From a virus (Duplodnaviria > Caudoviricetes): DNA of 64,000 bases. Below are positions 342 through 51,023 of this stretch, one piece after another (position 1 is the first letter of the stretch; each line of letters begins with the position of its first letter). The stretch spans positions 2,427-66,426 of the IMG/VR virus record IMGVR_UViG_3300032233_002329; one strand, written 5' to 3'. The notes beneath the pieces were generated by a model, which ran no database searches, was not told the origin of the DNA, and worked only from the letters and a program-made list of their open reading frames with translations. The translations under genes and the position numbers were made by a program.

Positions 342-479
342 ATGGATCCCACTACTCTGGCTATTGGCGCCATCCTCGTTAGTGCCATTTCTGAGATCTT
401 GCCGTTTACTCCGCTCAAAGCAAACGGCATTGTGCAGTTCATCCTGCAAGTTGCTCGCCTGACCTTCCCAAAGCGCTAA
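342..479 (+). CDS. holin-like small membrane protein (45 aa), below ORF-track cutoff
   Basis: ATG 342, TAA 477-479; MDPTTLAIGAILVSAISEILPFTPLKANGIVQFILQVARLTFPKR; hydrophobic helix plus amphipathic helix with basic tail; next to the endolysin. Confidence 0.6.
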   Translation: MDPTTLAIGAILVSAISEILPFTPLKANGIVQFILQVARLTFPKR

Positions 480-673
480 AGCGGGACATCGAGATTCAGG
501 TAGAGGTCACCGCTGCGATCGAGCAGTACGAAGCAAGCCTCCCGCCTGAACCCCCTGCAGTGCCTGCGCCGATCTACATCGAGCACGCAATAGATCCCGA
601 ACTTCAAACCGGGGATTCATTGGATTTGGGTGGAGCGATGGAGCTAAAAGCTCCCTGGCTAGACGAGCAGTAA
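467..673 (+). CDS. -1 frame extension of the holin-like gene (putative frameshift product)
   Basis: The open -1 frame PKALKRDIEIQVEVTAAIEQYE...GGAMELKAPWLDEQ has no upstream start codon and can be entered at the slippery heptamer C CCA AAG (467-473). Confidence 0.5.
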   Translation, partial: PKALKRDIEIQVEVTAAIEQYEASLPPEPPAVPAPIYIEHAIDPELQTGDSLDLGGAMELKAPWLDEQ

Positions 674-2394: not shown

Positions 2395-2417
2395 TAGTGA
2401 ACGCTCTAGTGAACGCT
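2395..2417 (+). repeat. tandem TAGTGAACGCT repeats (candidate integrase arm sites)
   Basis: Identical 11-mers at 2395 and 2407; a third copy, TAGTGAAC, lies at 2164 on the other side of the core. Confidence 0.6.
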
Positions 2418-3491
2418 GCGCCCCTGGAAGCGGCCCTCAAGGAGCTGAACGAGCGGCTGAAAACCGGCAAGCACCGAGCCCGCGTTGAGCAGCGACGGCA
2501 ACGGCTTTATGCCAGAGCAACCCTGCCCGATCGCAACGACGCCACCCTGCTCCGTCAGCAAAGCCTGCCCCTCGGCCTCGACGCCAGCCTCGAGGGTGTC
2601 AAGGAAGCCGAGATGCACGCCCTGCGGCTGAGCTTCCAACTAAGGGACAGCACCTTCAAGTGGGCTGACTGGGCTGACAAGAGCGCAGCTCACCCCGAGA
2701 GCGAATCCCGGATCACAGTCGAAGACTTCCAGAAAGCCGCCAAGAAGTTCCACGCCAGCAAGTACCGCACCTCCCCCGAGCGCGGTGCCAACGCCTGGGC
2801 CAAGAAGTGGGCCCCAGCCCTGAAGAAGATGCCGCCCTCTGGCCCTGTAAACGAGGCCGTCCTGCTCCGCATAATCCGCACCATGCCGGAGGGCTCTGCA
2901 GGCCGCAGGGACCAGGGCAACCTCCTCTGCTCCGTCGGAGAGTCCCTCGGACTGGACCTCCCCCAAGCTCGTGCGGCCAGCCGCGGTTACGGGGCCGCCC
3001 AGCTCACCCCCCGCGACATCCCCTCCGACACCGAGATCGAAGAAATCTGGGCACGGATCAAGCTCCCGCATTGGCGATGGATGTGGGGCGTTTGCGCCGC
3101 CTATGGCCTCCGCCCACATGAGGTCGCACACCTCGAGATCCGCCCAGATGGAAAGTGCGAGGTGGGGGACAACACCAAAACCGGTAGCCGCATCTGCTCG
3201 GCATGCCCCAGCAGATGGATCACCAAGTTCCAGCTGCATGACCTTCCGCGGCCAACACAAGCCCCCGCCAACCTTGCCAAGGTCTTCGGCGACGCTCTTG
3301 ATCGTGATGGGATTGAACTGCGCCCCTACGTCCTGCGGCACGCCTACGCCATCAGGCTGATTAGCAGGAAGATCCCGATCACCATTTCCGCGCTGATGAT
3401 GGGCCACTCGGTGGACGTCCACACCCGGACCTACCACCGGTGGATCACCAAGGAGCAGGTACTAGCCGCACTCGATGGTTTCAACCTGTAG
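2397..3491 (+). CDS. int: tyrosine integrase
   Basis: Catalytic set GLRPHE, KTG, YVLRH, MMGH and TYHRW; adjacent to the tRNA-derived att core. Confidence 0.93.
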   Translation: MNALVNAAPLEAALKELNERLKTGKHRARVEQRRQRLYARATLPDRNDATLLRQQSLPLGLDASLEGVKEAEMHALRLSFQLRDSTFKWADWADKSAAHPESESRITVEDFQKAAKKFHASKYRTSPERGANAWAKKWAPALKKMPPSGPVNEAVLLRIIRTMPEGSAGRRDQGNLLCSVGESLGLDLPQARAASRGYGAAQLTPRDIPSDTEIEEIWARIKLPHWRWMWGVCAAYGLRPHEVAHLEIRPDGKCEVGDNTKTGSRICSACPSRWITKFQLHDLPRPTQAPANLAKVFGDALDRDGIELRPYVLRHAYAIRLISRKIPITISALMMGHSVDVHTRTYHRWITKEQVLAALDGFNL

Positions 3492-43019: not shown

Positions 43020-43393
43020 TGGCGCGCTCTCAACCGTCTCTCAGCGCTGAGCTGAAAGCCGCCACTACCCAAGCCATGCAGCAACTCAGCACATGGCTTG
43101 ATGGGCGCTTCACCGAAGAAATCTCTTCAACGAAGTGGCCTTACCCGACACCTCCCAAGGTGCGGGACATCGTGGACACTGGCCGCCTGCGGGCAAGCCA
43201 ATCACGCTCTGTTAATGCGGACGGCTCAGTCACCTTCACCTGGCCCGTCGACTACGCACAACAGGTCCACGAGGGCGGCGTTGCCACTACTGGCCTGCGC
43301 TTTCCCGGCCGACCCTGGACAAAAGCTCCCCTCGCGGAAGCTTCTGACAAGTTCGGCAAATATCTGCGCTCCGCATTGGAGGCGCAGCAATGA
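43019..43393 (+). CDS. HK97 gp10-like neck/tail-completion protein
   Basis: IVDTGRLRAS, YAQQVHEG, GRPW. Confidence 0.75.
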   Translation: MARSQPSLSAELKAATTQAMQQLSTWLDGRFTEEISSTKWPYPTPPKVRDIVDTGRLRASQSRSVNADGSVTFTWPVDYAQQVHEGGVATTGLRFPGRPWTKAPLAEASDKFGKYLRSALEAQQ

Positions 43394-43863
43394 CGATCTC
43401 GACCAGCTACCCACCGGTAACCGTTCTCAGGAACAACATTGAGACCCACATCCTCGACCTCTACGAGGCCGATGGAACAACACTCAAGGCATATACCGCG
43501 TGGCCTGGTTACTACAACCTGCCTGACAACACCCGCATCCCCGCGGTTTATGTCGTTGGCACGTCGATGGTGCCCTCGAACTGGAACATCACCGGTATTG
43601 AGTGCACGATCGAAGAGGTTCCCGAGATCGCCAGCCCTGGCTCTGTAAGTGGTGTTATCTCATTCGAGACCTGGTCAGTCAGGTTCACCAATTACGGAAC
43701 CAAAGAGGGGACCCGCATGACCACGTCACTTCTGGACATCAGCAGGCGACTGGCACGGGCCTTCCCCAGGGACCAAGTCACGTACATGGCCCGAACAGAG
43801 GTCACCTTTGAGGCCCTCACGGCCCGCATCCGCGGAGTCGTAATGAACCCCCCGATCCCCTAA
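43390..43863 (+). CDS. putative tail terminator
   Basis: Position just before the major tail protein. Confidence 0.55.
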   Translation: MTISTSYPPVTVLRNNIETHILDLYEADGTTLKAYTAWPGYYNLPDNTRIPAVYVVGTSMVPSNWNITGIECTIEEVPEIASPGSVSGVISFETWSVRFTNYGTKEGTRMTTSLLDISRRLARAFPRDQVTYMARTEVTFEALTARIRGVVMNPPIP

Positions 43864-43875
43864 GGAGTCACCACC

Positions 43876-44886
43876 ATGGCCGACTATGCCATCGGGCTTT
43901 CATTCCACAAGGCTCACCGGACTCTCGTCCGCGCCGTGGAACTGACTGCTCCCAACCGCTACTTCGCTACCCGCGACGCCGCTGGCTTGATCACCCTGCC
44001 CACCCTGGACACCGGTGCAAGCTACCTGCAACTGGGTGGCCTGACTAAAGCCAACTTCCAAGTCAACGACAAGAACCAGGACTTCCGCCTCCTCGGTGAT
44101 GACGGCTGGTCCGATAGCGTCATTACTGGAGCCTCTGTGCAGGCTTCGGTGAGCGCCTATTTCGCCAAGGACACCGAAATCCCCGCCGGTACTACGGTCC
44201 CCGTTTTCCGCGGTAGCTACGACGAAGGATTCAACGTCATCCAACGTTGCCGCTACGACAAGACCTTCGAGGTCTACTTTGAGTTCCTCAAAGAGTTGGG
44301 TCAAGCCAACGGCACCACCGGCAACTTCATCTACGACTTCACTGGTTTCAACGCTGTTATCAGCAACTACCAGGAGTCGATGAGTGCAGAAGGTCTGACC
44401 GAAATCAGCTTCGACCTGATGTCCCGCGGTCGCCCTGTCTTTGGCCGCTACGACGCTGGTTCAACTGCCCTCAGCATTGGCAACATCCAATCTGCCCTGC
44501 TGTTCACCGCTCCTTCTTCTGGTACTCGTCGTTATGCGACTGTGCCTGCGGATAACTCGAGCGCGATTGTCACCACCGCCAACCTCACTGTTACCTACAC
44601 CAGTGATGGCACAACGGCCCTGACCCAGCTTGCCCTTGGTCAAACCGACGGCAGCGGCTTCCGCCTGGAAGTGGCTTCCACCGGGGTGGCAGTTCCCTGT
44701 GCTGTGAGCATCGCCTCCAACGTGGTCACCATTGACCCCAGCCCCACACTTGCAGCCGGTACGATCTACCGCCTGAGGGTGGCTGACGGTGCTCTAACCC
44801 AAGCTGTGGACGCAAGTGGAAACGCTTCTGCCTCTGGCTTCAAGCGTGGCCTTCAAGGGTTCACAACTGAATTCCGGACTGCCTAA
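43876..44886 (+). CDS. major tail protein with a C-terminal Ig-like (Big_5-type) domain
   Basis: Tube-like N-terminus (DDGWSDSVITG); VTIDPSPTLAAGTIYRLRV. Confidence 0.8.
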   Translation: MADYAIGLSFHKAHRTLVRAVELTAPNRYFATRDAAGLITLPTLDTGASYLQLGGLTKANFQVNDKNQDFRLLGDDGWSDSVITGASVQASVSAYFAKDTEIPAGTTVPVFRGSYDEGFNVIQRCRYDKTFEVYFEFLKELGQANGTTGNFIYDFTGFNAVISNYQESMSAEGLTEISFDLMSRGRPVFGRYDAGSTALSIGNIQSALLFTAPSSGTRRYATVPADNSSAIVTTANLTVTYTSDGTTALTQLALGQTDGSGFRLEVASTGVAVPCAVSIASNVVTIDPSPTLAAGTIYRLRVADGALTQAVDASGNASASGFKRGLQGFTTEFRTA

Positions 44887-44942: not shown

Positions 44943-45176
44943 ATGCACCACGATCTGTTAATAGACCCGATCAACACGGTCTTTGCAATCAACTGCCAAG
45001 AAGAAGGCGCCACCCTTCACTGCGGCGCCATCTACCTCGAACCCCTCGTCCAAAGCAGCACTATAACTTTAGCGTATAAAGAGGCTAAGATTGAGGTTGA
45101 ACTACCAGTCGAGCTCGTCAACCAGACAATGCCCTTTCGGGCCTGGTCGATAGATCTCCCAATCAAAGATGTCTAA
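44943..45176 (+). CDS. hypothetical protein
   Basis: Overlaps the start of the chaperone gene. Confidence 0.55.
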   Translation: MHHDLLIDPINTVFAINCQEEGATLHCGAIYLEPLVQSSTITLAYKEAKIEVELPVELVNQTMPFRAWSIDLPIKDV

Positions 45177-45714
45177 GTACGCCAGCATCCTTTTCGAGCC
45201 CAGCAAGTTTCACGAGATCGGACCGTTCCGTTTCCCGGTCTACAACGACCTCGTCCCAGGTGAAGCCAAGGGCATCGAAGAGATCGGGCGCAAACAGTCC
45301 AAGTCCACCTTCCGATCCATCAAGTTGGCACAGCGGATTGCGAAGGACAAAGGCATCACTACCAAAGAAGCGGTCAACCTCTTAGGCGAGGCCGGCAACG
45401 ACGAAAACCAAGAAATCCTGTTTGATTACGCAACCGAACTCGAGGAGCTGCAACGCGACACCCTAGGGGCAACTGAACAGCAAATCGCATTTGTCACCCT
45501 GTTCATCCGCTACCGCGGCGAGGTGAAGCTTCCCCGGGCAAAAGAGTGGACCCGTCTTAGCGACTGGACCGACGAAGACACCGAGAGCATGCCGTCCAAA
45601 ACCATGGAGGATGTCTTCAAGCTGCTGACCTGGGAGCGTGATGGTTGGCCCGAACCGGAATCAGAGGGAAACGACGAGGAGCAGGAGTTCAGCCCACCCC
45701 CGAGCAAATCCTGA
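45169..45714 (+). CDS. tail assembly chaperone (lambda gpG-like)
   Basis: Between MTP and TMP; contains G GGA AAC at 45666-45672. Confidence 0.75.
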   Translation: MSKYASILFEPSKFHEIGPFRFPVYNDLVPGEAKGIEEIGRKQSKSTFRSIKLAQRIAKDKGITTKEAVNLLGEAGNDENQEILFDYATELEELQRDTLGATEQQIAFVTLFIRYRGEVKLPRAKEWTRLSDWTDEDTESMPSKTMEDVFKLLTWERDGWPEPESEGNDEEQEFSPPPSKS

Positions 45715-46145
45715 AGCAATGTGAGGATCACCTCCGCACACCACTAACAGATTGGGACAGCGTCTATGTCAGGGTGCGCTGCTCCGAGATCGGGGCTGAT
45801 TACCCTGCAGAACGCTTTCTTCGCACTCCAATTAGCAGTATCCGTTGGCTCCTACGCCAACTGGATGACCGTGAAAAAGGTCAGGCCAACCTGGCCAGCG
45901 TCTCAACAGCACGCCTGGCCCACATTGTTCTGCAGGCAGCCCATGGGATGTCAGGCTCGAAGAGTCCAGCACCTAAGGTCCAACCCAAAGACTTCCTTCC
46001 CTACCCGGATTGGAGGCCCAGCACAGCCGAGGCCGACGGTCCGGATCAACCCACGAAGTTCATTCTTACGGAGCTGGTCAAGACCCGTCAGATCCCAATG
46101 CACGTGTTCGCTGCACTCATAACTCGAGCAGAGGAAGAGCGATAG
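45666..46145 (+). CDS. -1 frameshift extension (gpGT-like)
   Basis: The -1 frame GKRRGAGVQPTPEQILKQ... is open to 46145, just before the TMP. Confidence 0.75.
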   Translation, partial: GKRRGAGVQPTPEQILKQCEDHLRTPLTDWDSVYVRVRCSEIGADYPAERFLRTPISSIRWLLRQLDDREKGQANLASVSTARLAHIVLQAAHGMSGSKSPAPKVQPKDFLPYPDWRPSTAEADGPDQPTKFILTELVKTRQIPMHVFAALITRAEEER

Positions 46146-46178: not shown

Positions 46179-49100
46179 GTGGCTGACTTTAGGCTTAACG
46201 TCACTGCGGATACACGTGATGCCGAGAGTAAGCTCCAGGCCGTAGACAAAGCTGCAAATCAAGCCACAAAGCAGCGTACATTAAGAATAGACGTAAACGA
46301 GTTAAGCAAGAATTTCAAGGATATAGACAAGAATGTAAAAGAAGCTGGTAATACAATTCAGCAGTTTTACCGTATAAGCAAAAACATCCCTGGCATTGGG
46401 GATCGAGTACGGGAGTTTGAAGCGCTTACCAAAGGGGCTGCCAACCTCGCGAAAACAGCACCAAGTTCAGCTGCGGCATTGCGTGAAAATGCAAAAGCAG
46501 GGACAATTCTCGCAACATCGTTTGAAACAGCTGGCAGCGCAGCTGGGCGGTTAGTAGACAACCTAGCCAGGACCGGCCTTGCACTATTCGCAGTAAAGCA
46601 AGCTGTAGGTATTCTGCAAAGTGCATTTGGTGGTTTTTTTGATTCAACCATTGGCCGAGAAATCAAGCTTAGGGAGACCCTGCTCAAGACTCAGAGCACA
46701 CTCGCATCTAATAACAGGGTTTTCAGTAATGGCAAGGAACTTACTGATCCACTAGAAAAGATCAAAGCACTCCGAGCACCTGTCGTTGAAGCCATTGAAG
46801 ATATCCGCATTAAATCTCTTGAGTTATCAGGAACTACATCTGAACAAGTCATCGAGGTATTTGGAGTTGTTGCATCGCAAATCAGCCAAGTAGGAGGAGG
46901 AATCAAAGAAGCAAAGGATTTAGCAATCAGTTTCTCTGCTGCCCTGTCAACATTTGGCTTACCTTTTGAGCAAGCTCGGCAGGAAATTGGATCAATACTT
47001 CGCGGAGATGTCGGACCTGATTCGTACTTGGCAAAGGCCCTTGGAATTGACAACAATGCAATACAAAAAGCCAAAACTCAGGTAGGAGGAGTAGTCAAAT
47101 TTGTCGAAGACAAGCTCGCTACTGCAGTGGCGGGTCAAGCCATTGCAGCGCAGGGCTTTGCAGGTATTGCGAGCAACATCCAAGAAATTGCACAACTAGT
47201 ACAACAAAGTTTTGGCGCAGGACTCTTAGATCCGTTGCTGGGCGGGCTTACCAACGTCTATGCCTTCCTGTTCAAGATTGGATCAAAACTGCGAGATCTA
47301 TCCAAAGCAGCAGGCGAGGGCATTGGTGGGACTCTGGCAAGCATTGGATCCCAAATCGGTGGTGGATCATCCCTACTTCAAACAGTCACCGGCGGTGCAG
47401 GTGACTTCACAACCCAACTAACCGAGAGCGTTAAAAAAGCATTCGTCAGCCTGCAAGCCGATGCCAATCAGATCATCGGTCCGTTACGAAACATCATTGA
47501 ACAAATTGCACTGAGTATTGGTGTAGTGGCAAAAGGCTTGGCCGATCTCGCCAAAGGCTTCATCAGCATCAACATTGAAAACTTCAAAGCACTAGCACAA
47601 TTAGTATCGAACCTAATTGGCACCGTCACGGCTTTAGCTAGCGCTTTTGGTGGCTTGCTAAGCGCGTATGGGCAGATACTGCAGGCCCCCCTAGTTCAAT
47701 ACGTTAGTCAGATCACAGTTCAATTCCAGTTGCTAGAAAAGATCGGAGTGATGTCAGGTATAAAACTGGCAATTGCCGCCGTTGGCATTCTCGCGGCTTG
47801 GAAGCCAATAGTTGCTTTCTTCCAAATGTTGGCAGCAAGGATTGCTGCTTTGATAGGGGGTCTTGTAATTACGATTGGCGCAATAGTTAGCCAAGTAGGC
47901 CAGGTTATAGCAAGATTTGCTGCAACCCTAACAGCTAGCGTACCTGCAGTTGAACTACTAAAAAATGAGTTAATTGCGCTGTCGGGTGCACTAATCACAA
48001 CGGGTACATCCGCAAGCGCAGCAGGTACAAAGATTGCACAAATTGGAGGAGCAACAGCAGGCGCAGCGAGCAAAGTAAGCGGCTTTATATTAAACGCGAT
48101 AAAGCTCAACTTAATACTGTTTGCTATTCAAGCCGCTGTTGCCATTGCAGCAGATGCCTTTGGCCGTTATCAGCAGGAACAAGAAAAAATTGCCAAGGAC
48201 AAAAGGGCAGAGCAAGCCTTAAAAGAACTTCGCACTACATACAAAAATGTAGGTGATACCGCATCAGAATCGACAAAGAGAGCCAAGGAGTTTCGCGAGG
48301 CACTTGTAAATGCCCAATACACTGATGCTCTGGATCGTCTTGAAAAAATAAGAGTAAAACTCCAAGAAATAAACGACCTAACATCAGGCAAGAAAAAAGA
48401 CTTTGGCGATTACTTACGTCAGATTGCTCAGCTTTTCAATCCAGAAAATATGACTGTAAGCCAGAAGCCTGGCGAAACATTCTCAGATGCGGTTTACCGT
48501 CAAAAGCTTGCGGAAGAGAAGAAAATCATAGAGGAGCGTGATAAGTGGGCCAAAGAAGTCGACAAAAAAAGCCTGGGAGAAAAGATTACACTTGAAGCCA
48601 ACAAGCGTACAGATCTAAACAAGGAAATAGCCGACCTTGAGCGTGGTCACGCCTCCAAGCTCTTCGAACTACGCCAACAAGCCGCTTCCAAGGAAGTCGA
48701 GATCTTCCGCTTGGCAGGTGAACTGCGGATTGCCGAGGTCGAGCGCGCCAACGCCAAGATGCTCAAGGGCCAAGAAGGTGCCTCAGCAGTCGCCATCGAA
48801 GCTCTCAACAAGTACCTAGCCACCCGAGAGCGGGGTGAACTCGAGATCGAGGCCGCCAAGCAAGAGCTGCACATCGAATCCGCCAACCTCGACAAATCCG
48901 TAGCTGACTACCGAATTGCGATCGAGAAGCAGATTGCTGAAATTAAGAAGAAGTCAAACGAGAACGACATCGCCACGGCTGACTACCGCAAGCAACAACT
49001 GCTAGCTGGAGGAGCAACCGGTGCTGCAGGTAGCAATGACGCCATTAGTGCTGCAGTAACGGCCACCAAGAACCTAACTGGAGTCAATAATCAGTGCGCC

Positions 49101-51023
49101 GAAGCGGTCAAACGCTTCATGGCAGTGATCGGGGTCAACAGCTCGGTGATGAACCAAGCGGCAAAGAGTGCCGAGAAGATGGGCACGGTGATGACCGATT
49201 GGTCCAAGCTCCAGCCGGGGGACATCGTGGCTCGGGGTAGCAAGGGCGATCCGAGGCATGTTGGAGTTTTTACCGGGGGCCAAAACGTCTTTCACCAAAG
49301 TGCAGGTCGTGGCCTGACGGCTGGGAACTACCCCGACCTCGGGTACTTCAAACAACAGGGCTACTTCATCCGCCCTTCCGGGATGGCAGCCGGTGCTGGC
49401 CCTGTGGCTAAGCCTGTCCTGCAGGAAACACCCAGCTTTAAGGATCCAAAAGCCTATGGCAACGACGTAGCCGCAATCACAGGCAACATCAAGAACCTGA
49501 ACGCCCGGGTTGCCGATCTCAGAGCCCAAGCCACCAACGCGAACACCAAAGCAGCCTTCGACGCCATCCTCGATGGTCTCTTCCCTGAGGTACCTATCGA
49601 GGGCGCCCAGAACGACTTAATCGAGCGCTTCAACAAGATCAATGCCATGCTTCTGAACACAGGAGCAAATACGAGCGCGAACGCTGCTGAGCAGAAGTTT
49701 GCTGATATCAAGGCCGATACCCTCTCGCAGATTGAAGTCCTGAAGAGGGAAAAGGATCAGTTCCTGGCGGTCATTGAGCAGCGGAGAAAATCGAGTGATC
49801 CCAAGAACAAGCTCTCCGACAAGGAAGCTGATCGCATTAACGTTGAGACGGAAAAACGGCTAGATGCCCAAATCACCAAACTCAAGGAAGTCGAAAAGGT
49901 CAAGAAATCGGTTGCTGCCGCTGAGAACTACCAAGAGGCACTCACCCAACAGCAACAGCTCCTGATTCAGTTCAACCAGCAGACAGAGGCCATTAAAGAA
50001 GAGGCCGAAGCCCGAAGGCTTGCTAACAGGCTCCGCATGGAAGGCTTCTCCGAAGAAGCCATCCAGAACGAACTGCGCAAACTGAAGCTCGATCAGGATT
50101 TTGCCAAAGCGGCAGCGGTACTGGATGCCCAGTATCTGATCCTCCAAAACTCACTTGCTCAGTACAACCTCGAGCAAGCAAAAGGCGTTGTGCTGACAGG
50201 TGCTGCAAAACAAGCCTATGACGACCTCGTTAAGAAGCTGGATGAACTCAAGAGAAAAAGAGACGAGCTAGAAGGCAAAAAGGACAAGGCCAAAACCGAC
50301 GGAGACGCTGCCACCAAGGGTGCCAAGGAAACCCCTCGAGATGCACTTACCAAGAGGGCCGGCGATCTCAAGAAGGAACTAAGCGAACTCACCAAGTGGT
50401 CCACCATCGTGATGGGTGCCGCTGAAAGCATCGGTAGCGCCTTCTCCGCTTCCTTCAAAGGAGTGATCGATGGCTCCATGACGGCCCGCGAAGCCCTGGC
50501 GAGCTTCTTCAAGAGCATCGCGAACTACTTCATGGATATGGCGGCCAAGATCATTGCCAAGATGATCGAAATGGCAATTATCAACACCATTGTGGGCCTT
50601 CTCCCCGGGGCCGGTGGTGGCGGTGGGGGTGGCATCTTCGGTTCAGGTCAGTTCAAGCCAGGATCAGGACCACAACTCTCACCATCCTTGCCAGGCGCAA
50701 AGGATTACAGCGGAATCTTCAAACAACGCGCCTCAGGCGGTCCTGTCAACTATGGCTCCACCTACCTCGTGGGTGAGCAAGGCCCTGAACTCTTCCGCCC
50801 GAACAACAGCGGCACAATTGTCCCTAACCACCAGATGGGTGGCGGAGCAGGTGTTGGTGGTAGCCCAATGAACATCGTGGTGAACGTCGACGCCAAAGGC
50901 ACCCAGGTTGCTGGGAACGATGACAAGGGTGCCGCCCTCGGTCGTGTTGTCTCACAAGCAGTGCAGGCAGAATTAGTGAAACAACAGCGCCCAGGTGGGC
51001 TGCTGGCCGGTACTTCCCGCTAA
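46179..51023 (+). CDS. tape measure protein with an embedded NlpC/P60-like hydrolase
   Basis: 1614 aa, helical and Ala/Gly-rich; QCAEAV...LQPGDIV...RHVGVF; C-terminal RASGGPV...VGEQGPELF. Confidence 0.9.
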   Translation: MADFRLNVTADTRDAESKLQAVDKAANQATKQRTLRIDVNELSKNFKDIDKNVKEAGNTIQQFYRISKNIPGIGDRVREFEALTKGAANLAKTAPSSAAALRENAKAGTILATSFETAGSAAGRLVDNLARTGLALFAVKQAVGILQSAFGGFFDSTIGREIKLRETLLKTQSTLASNNRVFSNGKELTDPLEKIKALRAPVVEAIEDIRIKSLELSGTTSEQVIEVFGVVASQISQVGGGIKEAKDLAISFSAALSTFGLPFEQARQEIGSILRGDVGPDSYLAKALGIDNNAIQKAKTQVGGVVKFVEDKLATAVAGQAIAAQGFAGIASNIQEIAQLVQQSFGAGLLDPLLGGLTNVYAFLFKIGSKLRDLSKAAGEGIGGTLASIGSQIGGGSSLLQTVTGGAGDFTTQLTESVKKAFVSLQADANQIIGPLRNIIEQIALSIGVVAKGLADLAKGFISINIENFKALAQLVSNLIGTVTALASAFGGLLSAYGQILQAPLVQYVSQITVQFQLLEKIGVMSGIKLAIAAVGILAAWKPIVAFFQMLAARIAALIGGLVITIGAIVSQVGQVIARFAATLTASVPAVELLKNELIALSGALITTGTSASAAGTKIAQIGGATAGAASKVSGFILNAIKLNLILFAIQAAVAIAADAFGRYQQEQEKIAKDKRAEQALKELRTTYKNVGDTASESTKRAKEFREALVNAQYTDALDRLEKIRVKLQEINDLTSGKKKDFGDYLRQIAQLFNPENMTVSQKPGETFSDAVYRQKLAEEKKIIEERDKWAKEVDKKSLGEKITLEANKRTDLNKEIADLERGHASKLFELRQQAASKEVEIFRLAGELRIAEVERANAKMLKGQEGASAVAIEALNKYLATRERGELEIEAAKQELHIESANLDKSVADYRIAIEKQIAEIKKKSNENDIATADYRKQQLLAGGATGAAGSNDAISAAVTATKNLTGVNNQCAEAVKRFMAVIGVNSSVMNQAAKSAEKMGTVMTDWSKLQPGDIVARGSKGDPRHVGVFTGGQNVFHQSAGRGLTAGNYPDLGYFKQQGYFIRPSGMAAGAGPVAKPVLQETPSFKDPKAYGNDVAAITGNIKNLNARVADLRAQATNANTKAAFDAILDGLFPEVPIEGAQNDLIERFNKINAMLLNTGANTSANAAEQKFADIKADTLSQIEVLKREKDQFLAVIEQRRKSSDPKNKLSDKEADRINVETEKRLDAQITKLKEVEKVKKSVAAAENYQEALTQQQQLLIQFNQQTEAIKEEAEARRLANRLRMEGFSEEAIQNELRKLKLDQDFAKAAAVLDAQYLILQNSLAQYNLEQAKGVVLTGAAKQAYDDLVKKLDELKRKRDELEGKKDKAKTDGDAATKGAKETPRDALTKRAGDLKKELSELTKWSTIVMGAAESIGSAFSASFKGVIDGSMTAREALASFFKSIANYFMDMAAKIIAKMIEMAIINTIVGLLPGAGGGGGGGIFGSGQFKPGSGPQLSPSLPGAKDYSGIFKQRASGGPVNYGSTYLVGEQGPELFRPNNSGTIVPNHQMGGGAGVGGSPMNIVVNVDAKGTQVAGNDDKGAALGRVVSQAVQAELVKQQRPGGLLAGTSR

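Follow-up and report, generated by a model that had tools for sequence, protein, structure and literature searches.

Positions 342–673 of the DNA analysed here very likely form a single gene with two products, the longer one made by programmed −1 ribosomal frameshifting; no protein, ribosome-profiling or reporter data exist for it. The analysed stretch (64,000 nt, hereafter the window) comprises bases 2427–66426 of a 66,426-bp metagenome-derived virus record with direct terminal repeats; the virus is cyanobacterial, and besides structural genes of siphovirus type the window has genes for an integrase and an endolysin. The features of the locus and its surroundings are as follows:

342–479, + strand: ORF0, a 45-aa holin-like membrane protein (ATG at 342, stop codon TAA at 477–479)
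467–473, + strand: slippery heptamer C CCA AAG in the X XXY YYZ register, 3 nt 5′ of the 0-frame stop
473–673, + strand: −1 frame extension, E, of 66 codons plus stop TAA at 671–673; first possible start GTG at 560
342–673, + strand: transframe product ORF0-E, 110 aa (44 from ORF0 and 66 from E), predicted and never observed as a protein
732–980, + strand: ORF of 82 aa, hydrophobic at its N-terminus and coiled-coil-like in its tail, a possible further member of the lysis cassette
977–2134, − strand: endolysin gene, 385 aa (Pfam Glucosaminidase, 5e-20; Peptidase_M15_3, 4.9e-16; PHROG endolysin families)

The ORF0 product begins with MDPTT and ends with TFPKR, its last codons being TTC (465), CCA (468), AAG (471), CGC (474) and TAA (477). 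In the −1 frame, no stop occurs from 395, just after the TGA at 392–394, to the TAA at 671–673, which makes 68 codons counted from 467 or 66 codons counted from the last base of the heptamer, 473; there is no ATG, GTG or TTG in this frame between 395 and GTG 560. A first-pass annotation, made from the sequence alone, had reported the end of the 45-aa ORF, the heptamer at 467–473 with its register, and a 68-codon −1 frame reaching 673 without a start codon; all of this held exactly.

In one genome alone, the combination of a heptamer and an open −1 frame is weak evidence. Among 559 mechanically defined ORFs of ≥40 aa in the window, 13 have an in-register XXXYYYZ within the last 30 nt, and five of the 13 (∼1% of 559) also have a −1 frame of ≥50 codons. 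As such a pattern is not rare in the window, the case rests on comparison with relatives. Elsewhere in the window, an ORF at 43390–43863, which precedes the major tail protein gene, has C CCC CCG in register 6 nt before its stop and a 64-codon open −1 frame; this site is probably a chance occurrence.

A search with the −1 product matched four viral contigs at 56–83% identity. All four had an in-register heptamer, a 0-frame stop one codon further on and an open −1 frame; in two of them C CCA AAA AAG replaced C CCA AAG. Profile-guided scans then provided 33 viral loci with the ORF0 gene and, among 294 relatives found, 80 metagenome loci with the extension; all loci were scored with HMMs of both parts (ORF0 and E). 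We saw ORF0 followed by E in the −1 relation, with the heptamer in register, in 57 loci (53 of them distinct); the exceptions were a metagenome contig (L100) and the isolate S-CBS2, both described below. Thus, the alignment of homologous loci, proposed at the first pass as a check of the two-product prediction, supported it, with heptamer and open −1 frame kept in 57 of 57 E-bearing loci. The heptamer itself takes three forms in the 53 distinct loci: AAAAAAG (30), CCCAAAG (16) and GGGAAAG (7). The distance from its end to the 0-frame stop is 3 nt in 48 loci, 0 nt in four and 6 nt in one.

Slipperiness of these sites is set by synonymous choices: TTC CCA AAG; xxA AAA AAG after CCA, GGA, GCA or GTA; CCG GGA AAG. 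The 22 loci with ORF0 only read TTC CCC/CCT/CCG AAG, TTT CCC AAG or TTC CCC CGY, none of which is slippery; the heptamer is lost there through synonymous changes, the Pro codon being CCC, CCT or CCG. The two-by-two table of E and heptamer contains 57 loci with both, none with E and no heptamer, two with the heptamer and no E, and 22 with neither. The two heptamer-bearing loci without E are near-identical to an E-bearing relative save for a ∼195-nt deletion, and represent a recent loss of E. On the ORF0 tree, presence of E changes at least six times and presence of the heptamer at least five times. When the association was corrected for the tree, 3–4 of the four independent contrasts were concordant and none was opposite (sign test, p 0.125–0.25); with just four independent contrasts this test is underpowered, though its outcome is consistent with the association.

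The arrangement is present in two cultured isolates. In S-CBS3 (L127, NC_015465), gp21 ends with G GGA AAA AAG CTC TAG, and its −1 frame runs on into gp22, the stop codon of which overlaps the endolysin start; in S-EIVl (L128, KJ410740), the same arrangement is built around G GGA AAG CGC TGA. An artefact of metagenome assembly is therefore excluded. In GenBank, both S-CBS3 gp22 and the S-EIVl protein AHV82131 start at an internal ATG or GTG. It is likely that these records under-annotate a transframe product, with conservation of coding beginning at the heptamer of the preceding 46-aa gene. The contig L100 (1013 nt, from a metagenome) stands alone in having E shifted by +1 against ORF0; its context is GCA AAA AAG GTC TGA, and a 1-nt length error or a variant is possible. 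A scan of genome contigs for prophage copies gave no match.

The −1 frame evolves as a protein under purifying selection from the heptamer onward. Homologous extensions are 58–95 codons long in the 57 loci; dN/dS of E in the −1 frame was 0.02–0.33 across 40 pairwise comparisons (0.14–0.21 within the clade of the window), with third-position changes dominating. In this clade the same third-position bias was observed for the first 29 codons after the heptamer, all of which are upstream of any possible internal start. On the other hand, signals for independent initiation are mostly missing. In 49 of the 53 distinct loci no ATG, GTG or TTG occurs in the −1 frame upstream of the heptamer, in 37 of the 53 none occurs between the upstream −1 stop and the conserved E domain, and no start codon for the −1 frame is conserved among the 53. 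An independent start of the downstream ORF in homologues had been named in advance as an observation that would refute frameshifting; one isolate, S-CBS2, does have such a start. Its gp048 begins with a GTG overlapping the stop of an ORF0-like gene. Having its own start and its own N-terminal helix, and no heptamer, this locus fits the frameshift reading rather than contradicting it.

One could suppose that E is translated independently, by reinitiation after the ORF0 stop or from an internal start (GTG 560), to give a free soluble peptide. With the 0-frame stop only 3 nt past the heptamer, termination–reinitiation is geometrically possible; the GTG of S-CBS2 gp048 overlapping the upstream stop, and the internal starts annotated in GenBank for S-CBS3 gp22 and the S-EIVl protein, also speak for it. 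We nevertheless regard this explanation as unlikely. A conserved start is absent (37 of the 53 loci have no ATG, GTG or TTG ahead of the conserved domain), the codons following the stop in the window are CTA AAG CGG, and coding constraint begins at the heptamer, upstream of any internal start. Independent translation would also leave unexplained why the heptamer is retained in three forms and is lost exactly where E is absent; moreover, E proteins with starts of their own have their own N-terminal helix, which a reinitiated E would not have here.

Slippage of RNA polymerase on a run of A's, producing mRNAs with one A more or fewer, could be considered for the 30 of 53 distinct loci having six A's followed by G (xxA AAA AAG). 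The window and 22 other distinct loci, however, have three A's only (CCCAAAG or GGGAAAG), and three A's are too short for known transcriptional slippage; besides, each of the 53 sites keeps to the X XXY YYZ register, which is relevant to re-pairing of tRNAs and not to the polymerase, so that this mechanism appears very improbable. The least tenable alternative would treat the locus as a broken gene or a product of sequencing error (a 1-nt indel in a single ORF0-E gene), or else the −1 frame as an untranslated chance frame. The metagenomic origin of the window record, the occurrence of the bare pattern in ∼1% of mechanical ORFs by chance and the +1 relation in the short contig L100 could be cited in its favor. 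Against these stand 53 distinct sequences, from many samples and including two cultured isolates, which all keep the 0-frame stop and have E in the −1 relation; both parts in a single frame occur in no relative of the ORF0 type, and dN/dS of the −1 frame is 0.02–0.33. We consider this explanation practically ruled out.

Programmed −1 frameshifting, the reading we favor, would work as follows. Most ribosomes would read the 0 frame to the TAA at 477–479 and make a 45-residue membrane protein with two helices. While their P site is on CCA and their A site on AAG, some ribosomes would slip back one base on C CCA AAG and read 66 codons in the −1 frame, giving the 110-residue protein: ORF0 without its last residue, then an acidic helix, a Pro-rich linker and a C-terminal strand–helix–strand motif. 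The common ground of the three heptamers would be tandem re-pairing of tRNAs with AAG (Lys) as the A-site codon. We found no convincingly conserved downstream stimulator (hairpin or pseudoknot), as minimum free energy folds and two RNAalifold runs gave weak, non-covarying hairpins only; an upstream Shine–Dalgarno (SD)-like sequence was not convincingly conserved either. The sole conserved neighbour of the heptamer is the 0-frame stop. By inference as to function, the long form would hold E at the membrane, in an amount that is low and fixed relative to the short form; that it acts as an accessory or regulatory lysis factor is likewise inferred, with much less certainty than the frameshift itself, and it could be an antiholin-like regulator, an envelope-spanning factor or a partner of the endolysin. 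In most relatives, where the stop of E overlaps the endolysin start, ribosomes that have slipped may also feed translation of the endolysin; such coupling is not applicable in the window, its endolysin gene being convergent.

Frameshifting of the −1 type is well described for the tail assembly chaperone genes G/GT (lambda, G GGA AAG) and E/E+E′ of P2 (Xu, Hendrix & Duda 2004, cited in PMC3091744). The gene described here resembles G/GT: a short upstream ORF has an X XXY YYZ heptamer close to its end, and the −1 extension lacks a start codon; in both cases (for ORF0-E, by prediction) there are two products with a common N-terminus in a fixed ratio, often without an obvious stimulatory RNA structure, and the position is conserved across very divergent phages. 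One of the heptamers of the ORF0-E family, G GGA AAG, is identical to that of lambda. It differs from G/GT in gene family and module, the short product being a 45-aa membrane protein and the gene (342–673) belonging to a lysis cassette. Identification of ORF0-E as the tail assembly chaperone pair was rejected, as it is not flanked by genes for the major tail protein and the tape measure. The genome has a separate tail pair: ORFs 45169–45714 and 45645–46145 with G GGA AAC at 45666–45672, flanked by the major tail protein gene (43876–44886) and a 1614-aa ORF of tape-measure size (46179–51023). The use of a heptamer in the tail at 45666, claimed at the first pass, held, the site being in register; it is the expected tail assembly chaperone frameshift site.

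The same class of tandem-slippage heptamers, with AAG as the A-site codon, operates in E. coli dnaX (tau/gamma) and in OrfA-OrfAB of IS3/IS911; A AAA AAG, the dnaX/IS911 site, is the commonest form in the ORF0-E family (30/53). In dnaX and IS911, frameshifting relies on an SD-like element upstream together with a hairpin or pseudoknot downstream, whereas neither was convincingly conserved in ORF0-E; also, the frame entered by slippage ends immediately in dnaX but would lengthen the product by 58–95 residues here.

What the short product does is less clear than how the long one would be made. The AF2 model of ORF0 (62 homologues) has a helix of transmembrane length at residues 3–22 and an amphipathic helix at residues 29–41; the first helix has a mean hydropathy of 1.89, the C-terminus is FPKR and the net charge is +2 (all predictions). 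Residues A15, S17, E18, N28 and Q32 are invariant. The family is represented by 3,996 clusters (at 90% identity), all of them annotated as ‘hypothetical’ and none with a Pfam domain. ORF0 had no match among Pfam families, PDB sequences or solved folds, and its single match in PHROG was phrog_22542, of unknown function; it thus matched no described holin family there. Weak ORF0 matches in P-SS2 and phage B23 were discarded, being longer proteins without this arrangement. A gene with dual starts for holin and antiholin was also ruled out, as ORF0 has a single ATG and begins with MDPTT. ORF0 does meet the holin criteria of size, transmembrane helix, charged C-terminus and a gene adjacent to an endolysin. 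It is possible that ORF0 is a holin-like membrane component of the lysis system; this is inferred from size, helices and position beside the endolysin, without lesion or lysis data. Designation of the short form as a holin, made at the first pass, remains such an inference, and so does that of the long form as an antiholin or a factor acting on the outer membrane, for which we have no supporting data.

The AF2 model of E (pLDDT 90.6) consists of a helix at residues 2–22, a Pro-rich linker and a strand–helix–strand motif carrying QTGDSLDLGGAMELKAPW (family consensus QTGxSxxLGGxMxxxAPW). No named family was found for E among Pfam, PHROG and PDB sequences; comparison of the model by Foldseek with PDB and by VIA-align wide gave nothing above noise (best Z 2.5), and in BFVD it matched homologues only. 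A profile search of 1.84 billion representatives returned 81 clusters with E, 31 of them at E ≤ 1e-10. Many of these are gene-caller ORFs in the −1 frame, with N-termini that are out-of-frame readings of ORF0 and with PK|AL, KK|AL or GK|AL at the junction. Others are true single ORFs, where E follows an N-terminal hydrophobic or amphipathic helix of the protein's own; examples are S-CBS2 gp048, phrog_3316 proteins (a Lys-rich N-terminus and a transmembrane helix ahead of E), a podovirus-like group and S-PM2 Q5GQH8. A membrane-seeking element at the N-terminus is thus the normal companion of E, and in the frameshift type it is supplied by ORF0. The E module is common to sipho-, podo- and myo-type cyanophages, with no known fold found for it.

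Several observations concern E outside the frameshift type. A 138-aa protein with a transmembrane segment and E (phrog_3316; locus L108) is encoded next to thyX. Stand-alone E proteins of 83–109 aa with a W/K-rich N-terminal helix occur in L047, L052, L063, L067, L097, L110 and other loci; in podovirus-like contigs their genes directly follow a phrog_298 exonuclease gene and are not by an endolysin, which weakens a strict assignment of E to lysis. The BFVD match to S-PM2 ‘T4-like GC 852’ places the E module in cyanomyoviruses too. In the 218-aa database protein P0034, a C-terminal E motif is in one frame with Phage_lysozyme (PF00959, 3.1e-23); either the two were fused naturally, or the E stop, overlapping the endolysin start, has been read through. 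For the topology of the long form the indications conflict: the positive-inside rule would put the junction (FPK|ALKR) in the cytoplasm, while distant single-ORF homologues look N-in/C-out, with Cys pairs in E.

The surroundings of ORF0 bear on its assignment to lysis. The endolysin ORF begins no later than the E stop in 45 of 52 distinct frameshift-type loci, and in relatives with ORF0 only its start is overlapped or adjoined by the ORF0 stop; this adjacency supports a role of ORF0 in a lysis cassette and makes translational coupling possible. The endolysin gene of the window is convergent with the cassette, its end being ∼300 nt downstream, and its DNA resembles only lysozyme genes of Synechococcus phages. 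Endolysins of relatives (L014, L040, L049, L127 and others) share an N-terminal segment of ∼50 aa ahead of the catalytic domain, with the motif DLFRYYKxLPHQMAAIxELE, which the window's endolysin does not have. Between E and the endolysin gene the window has the 82-aa ORF. ORFs of the same architecture are found directly upstream of ORF0 in L002, L003 and S-CBS3 (gp20); similarity of the 82-aa ORF to such transmembrane plus coiled-coil ORFs beside ORF0 was merely marginal (E 0.017 and 0.28), and homology was not upheld. Just upstream of the integrase gene (2397–3491), a 46-nt segment at 2243–2288 is 93.5% identical to Planktothrix phage PaV-LD; ARAGORN found no tRNA there, and a terminator-like hairpin follows at 2316–2343. 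Conceivably, this segment is an attP core derived from the end of a host tRNA gene.

Among lysis systems, the closest in plan are lambda S105/S107 and phage 21 S68/S71, in which, as predicted for ORF0-E, one gene for a small lysis membrane protein is the source of two products with common membrane helices, made in a fixed ratio. The S forms differ by two to three N-terminal residues through alternative starts, whereas the ORF0-E forms would differ by a C-terminal domain of ∼65 residues through recoding; antagonism between the latter is hypothetical. In the RNA phage MS2, the lysis gene L is expressed only by way of frameshifting within the coat gene (Kastelein et al. 1982, cited in PMC10885494), so there too ribosomal frameshifting feeds expression of a lysis function; however, in MS2 the frameshift merely delivers ribosomes to a separate start, with no transframe effector and no canonical heptamer of this kind. 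Spanins (Rz/Rz1, T1 u-spanin gp11) and the T4 antiholin RI are, as the long form would be, small accessory lysis proteins from phages of diderm hosts, in which one membrane segment at the N-terminus precedes a short part, helical or rich in Pro, outside the membrane; their size (∼100 aa) is similar to that of the long form. Unlike these, E of the window lacks a lipobox and any Cys, and it has neither a long coiled coil nor a transmembrane domain at the C-terminus. We found no similarity of E to spanins or RI in sequence or fold; the likeness is in architecture only. A spanin identity of the long form was rejected, since it has neither a lipobox Cys nor a long coiled coil, E being a 21-residue helix, a Pro-rich linker and the strand–helix–strand motif.

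The first-pass annotation had also stated that such a frameshift was not known to be described for cyanophage lysis genes. The full-text literature searched contained no report of a frameshift in a holin gene or in a gene for a small lysis membrane protein; the search returned instead tail-chaperone sites, a vague note on Streptomyces BI2 phages, the MS2 L gene and an old case of a Lactococcus lysin. If mobile elements and dnaX are set aside, the conserved −1 frameshifts with good support in phages belong almost exclusively to capsid genes or the tail chaperone pair. Should the lysis cassette indeed have a second site of equal conservation, phage annotation would gain a new class of recoding. 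To our knowledge, cyanophages have no defined holin, antiholin or spanin; ORF0-E is a concrete two-product candidate for cyanophage lysis, with an ORF0 family that is very large yet wholly unannotated. As S-CBS3 and S-EIVl are in culture, the prediction is directly testable.

One could speculate further that the frameshift is the core of a design for lysis control in cyanophages that has gone unrecognised; as a whole, this bolder reading is less likely than not. In it, the short form would be the hole-former and the long form would anchor a pan-cyanophage E, which T4-like and T7-like cyanophages have as separate proteins, to time or complete lysis; with the endolysin start overlapping the E stop in most relatives, only ribosomes that have slipped would deliver coupled translation of the endolysin. 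If this were true, the efficiency of recoding would set both the dose of the regulator and the dose of the enzyme.
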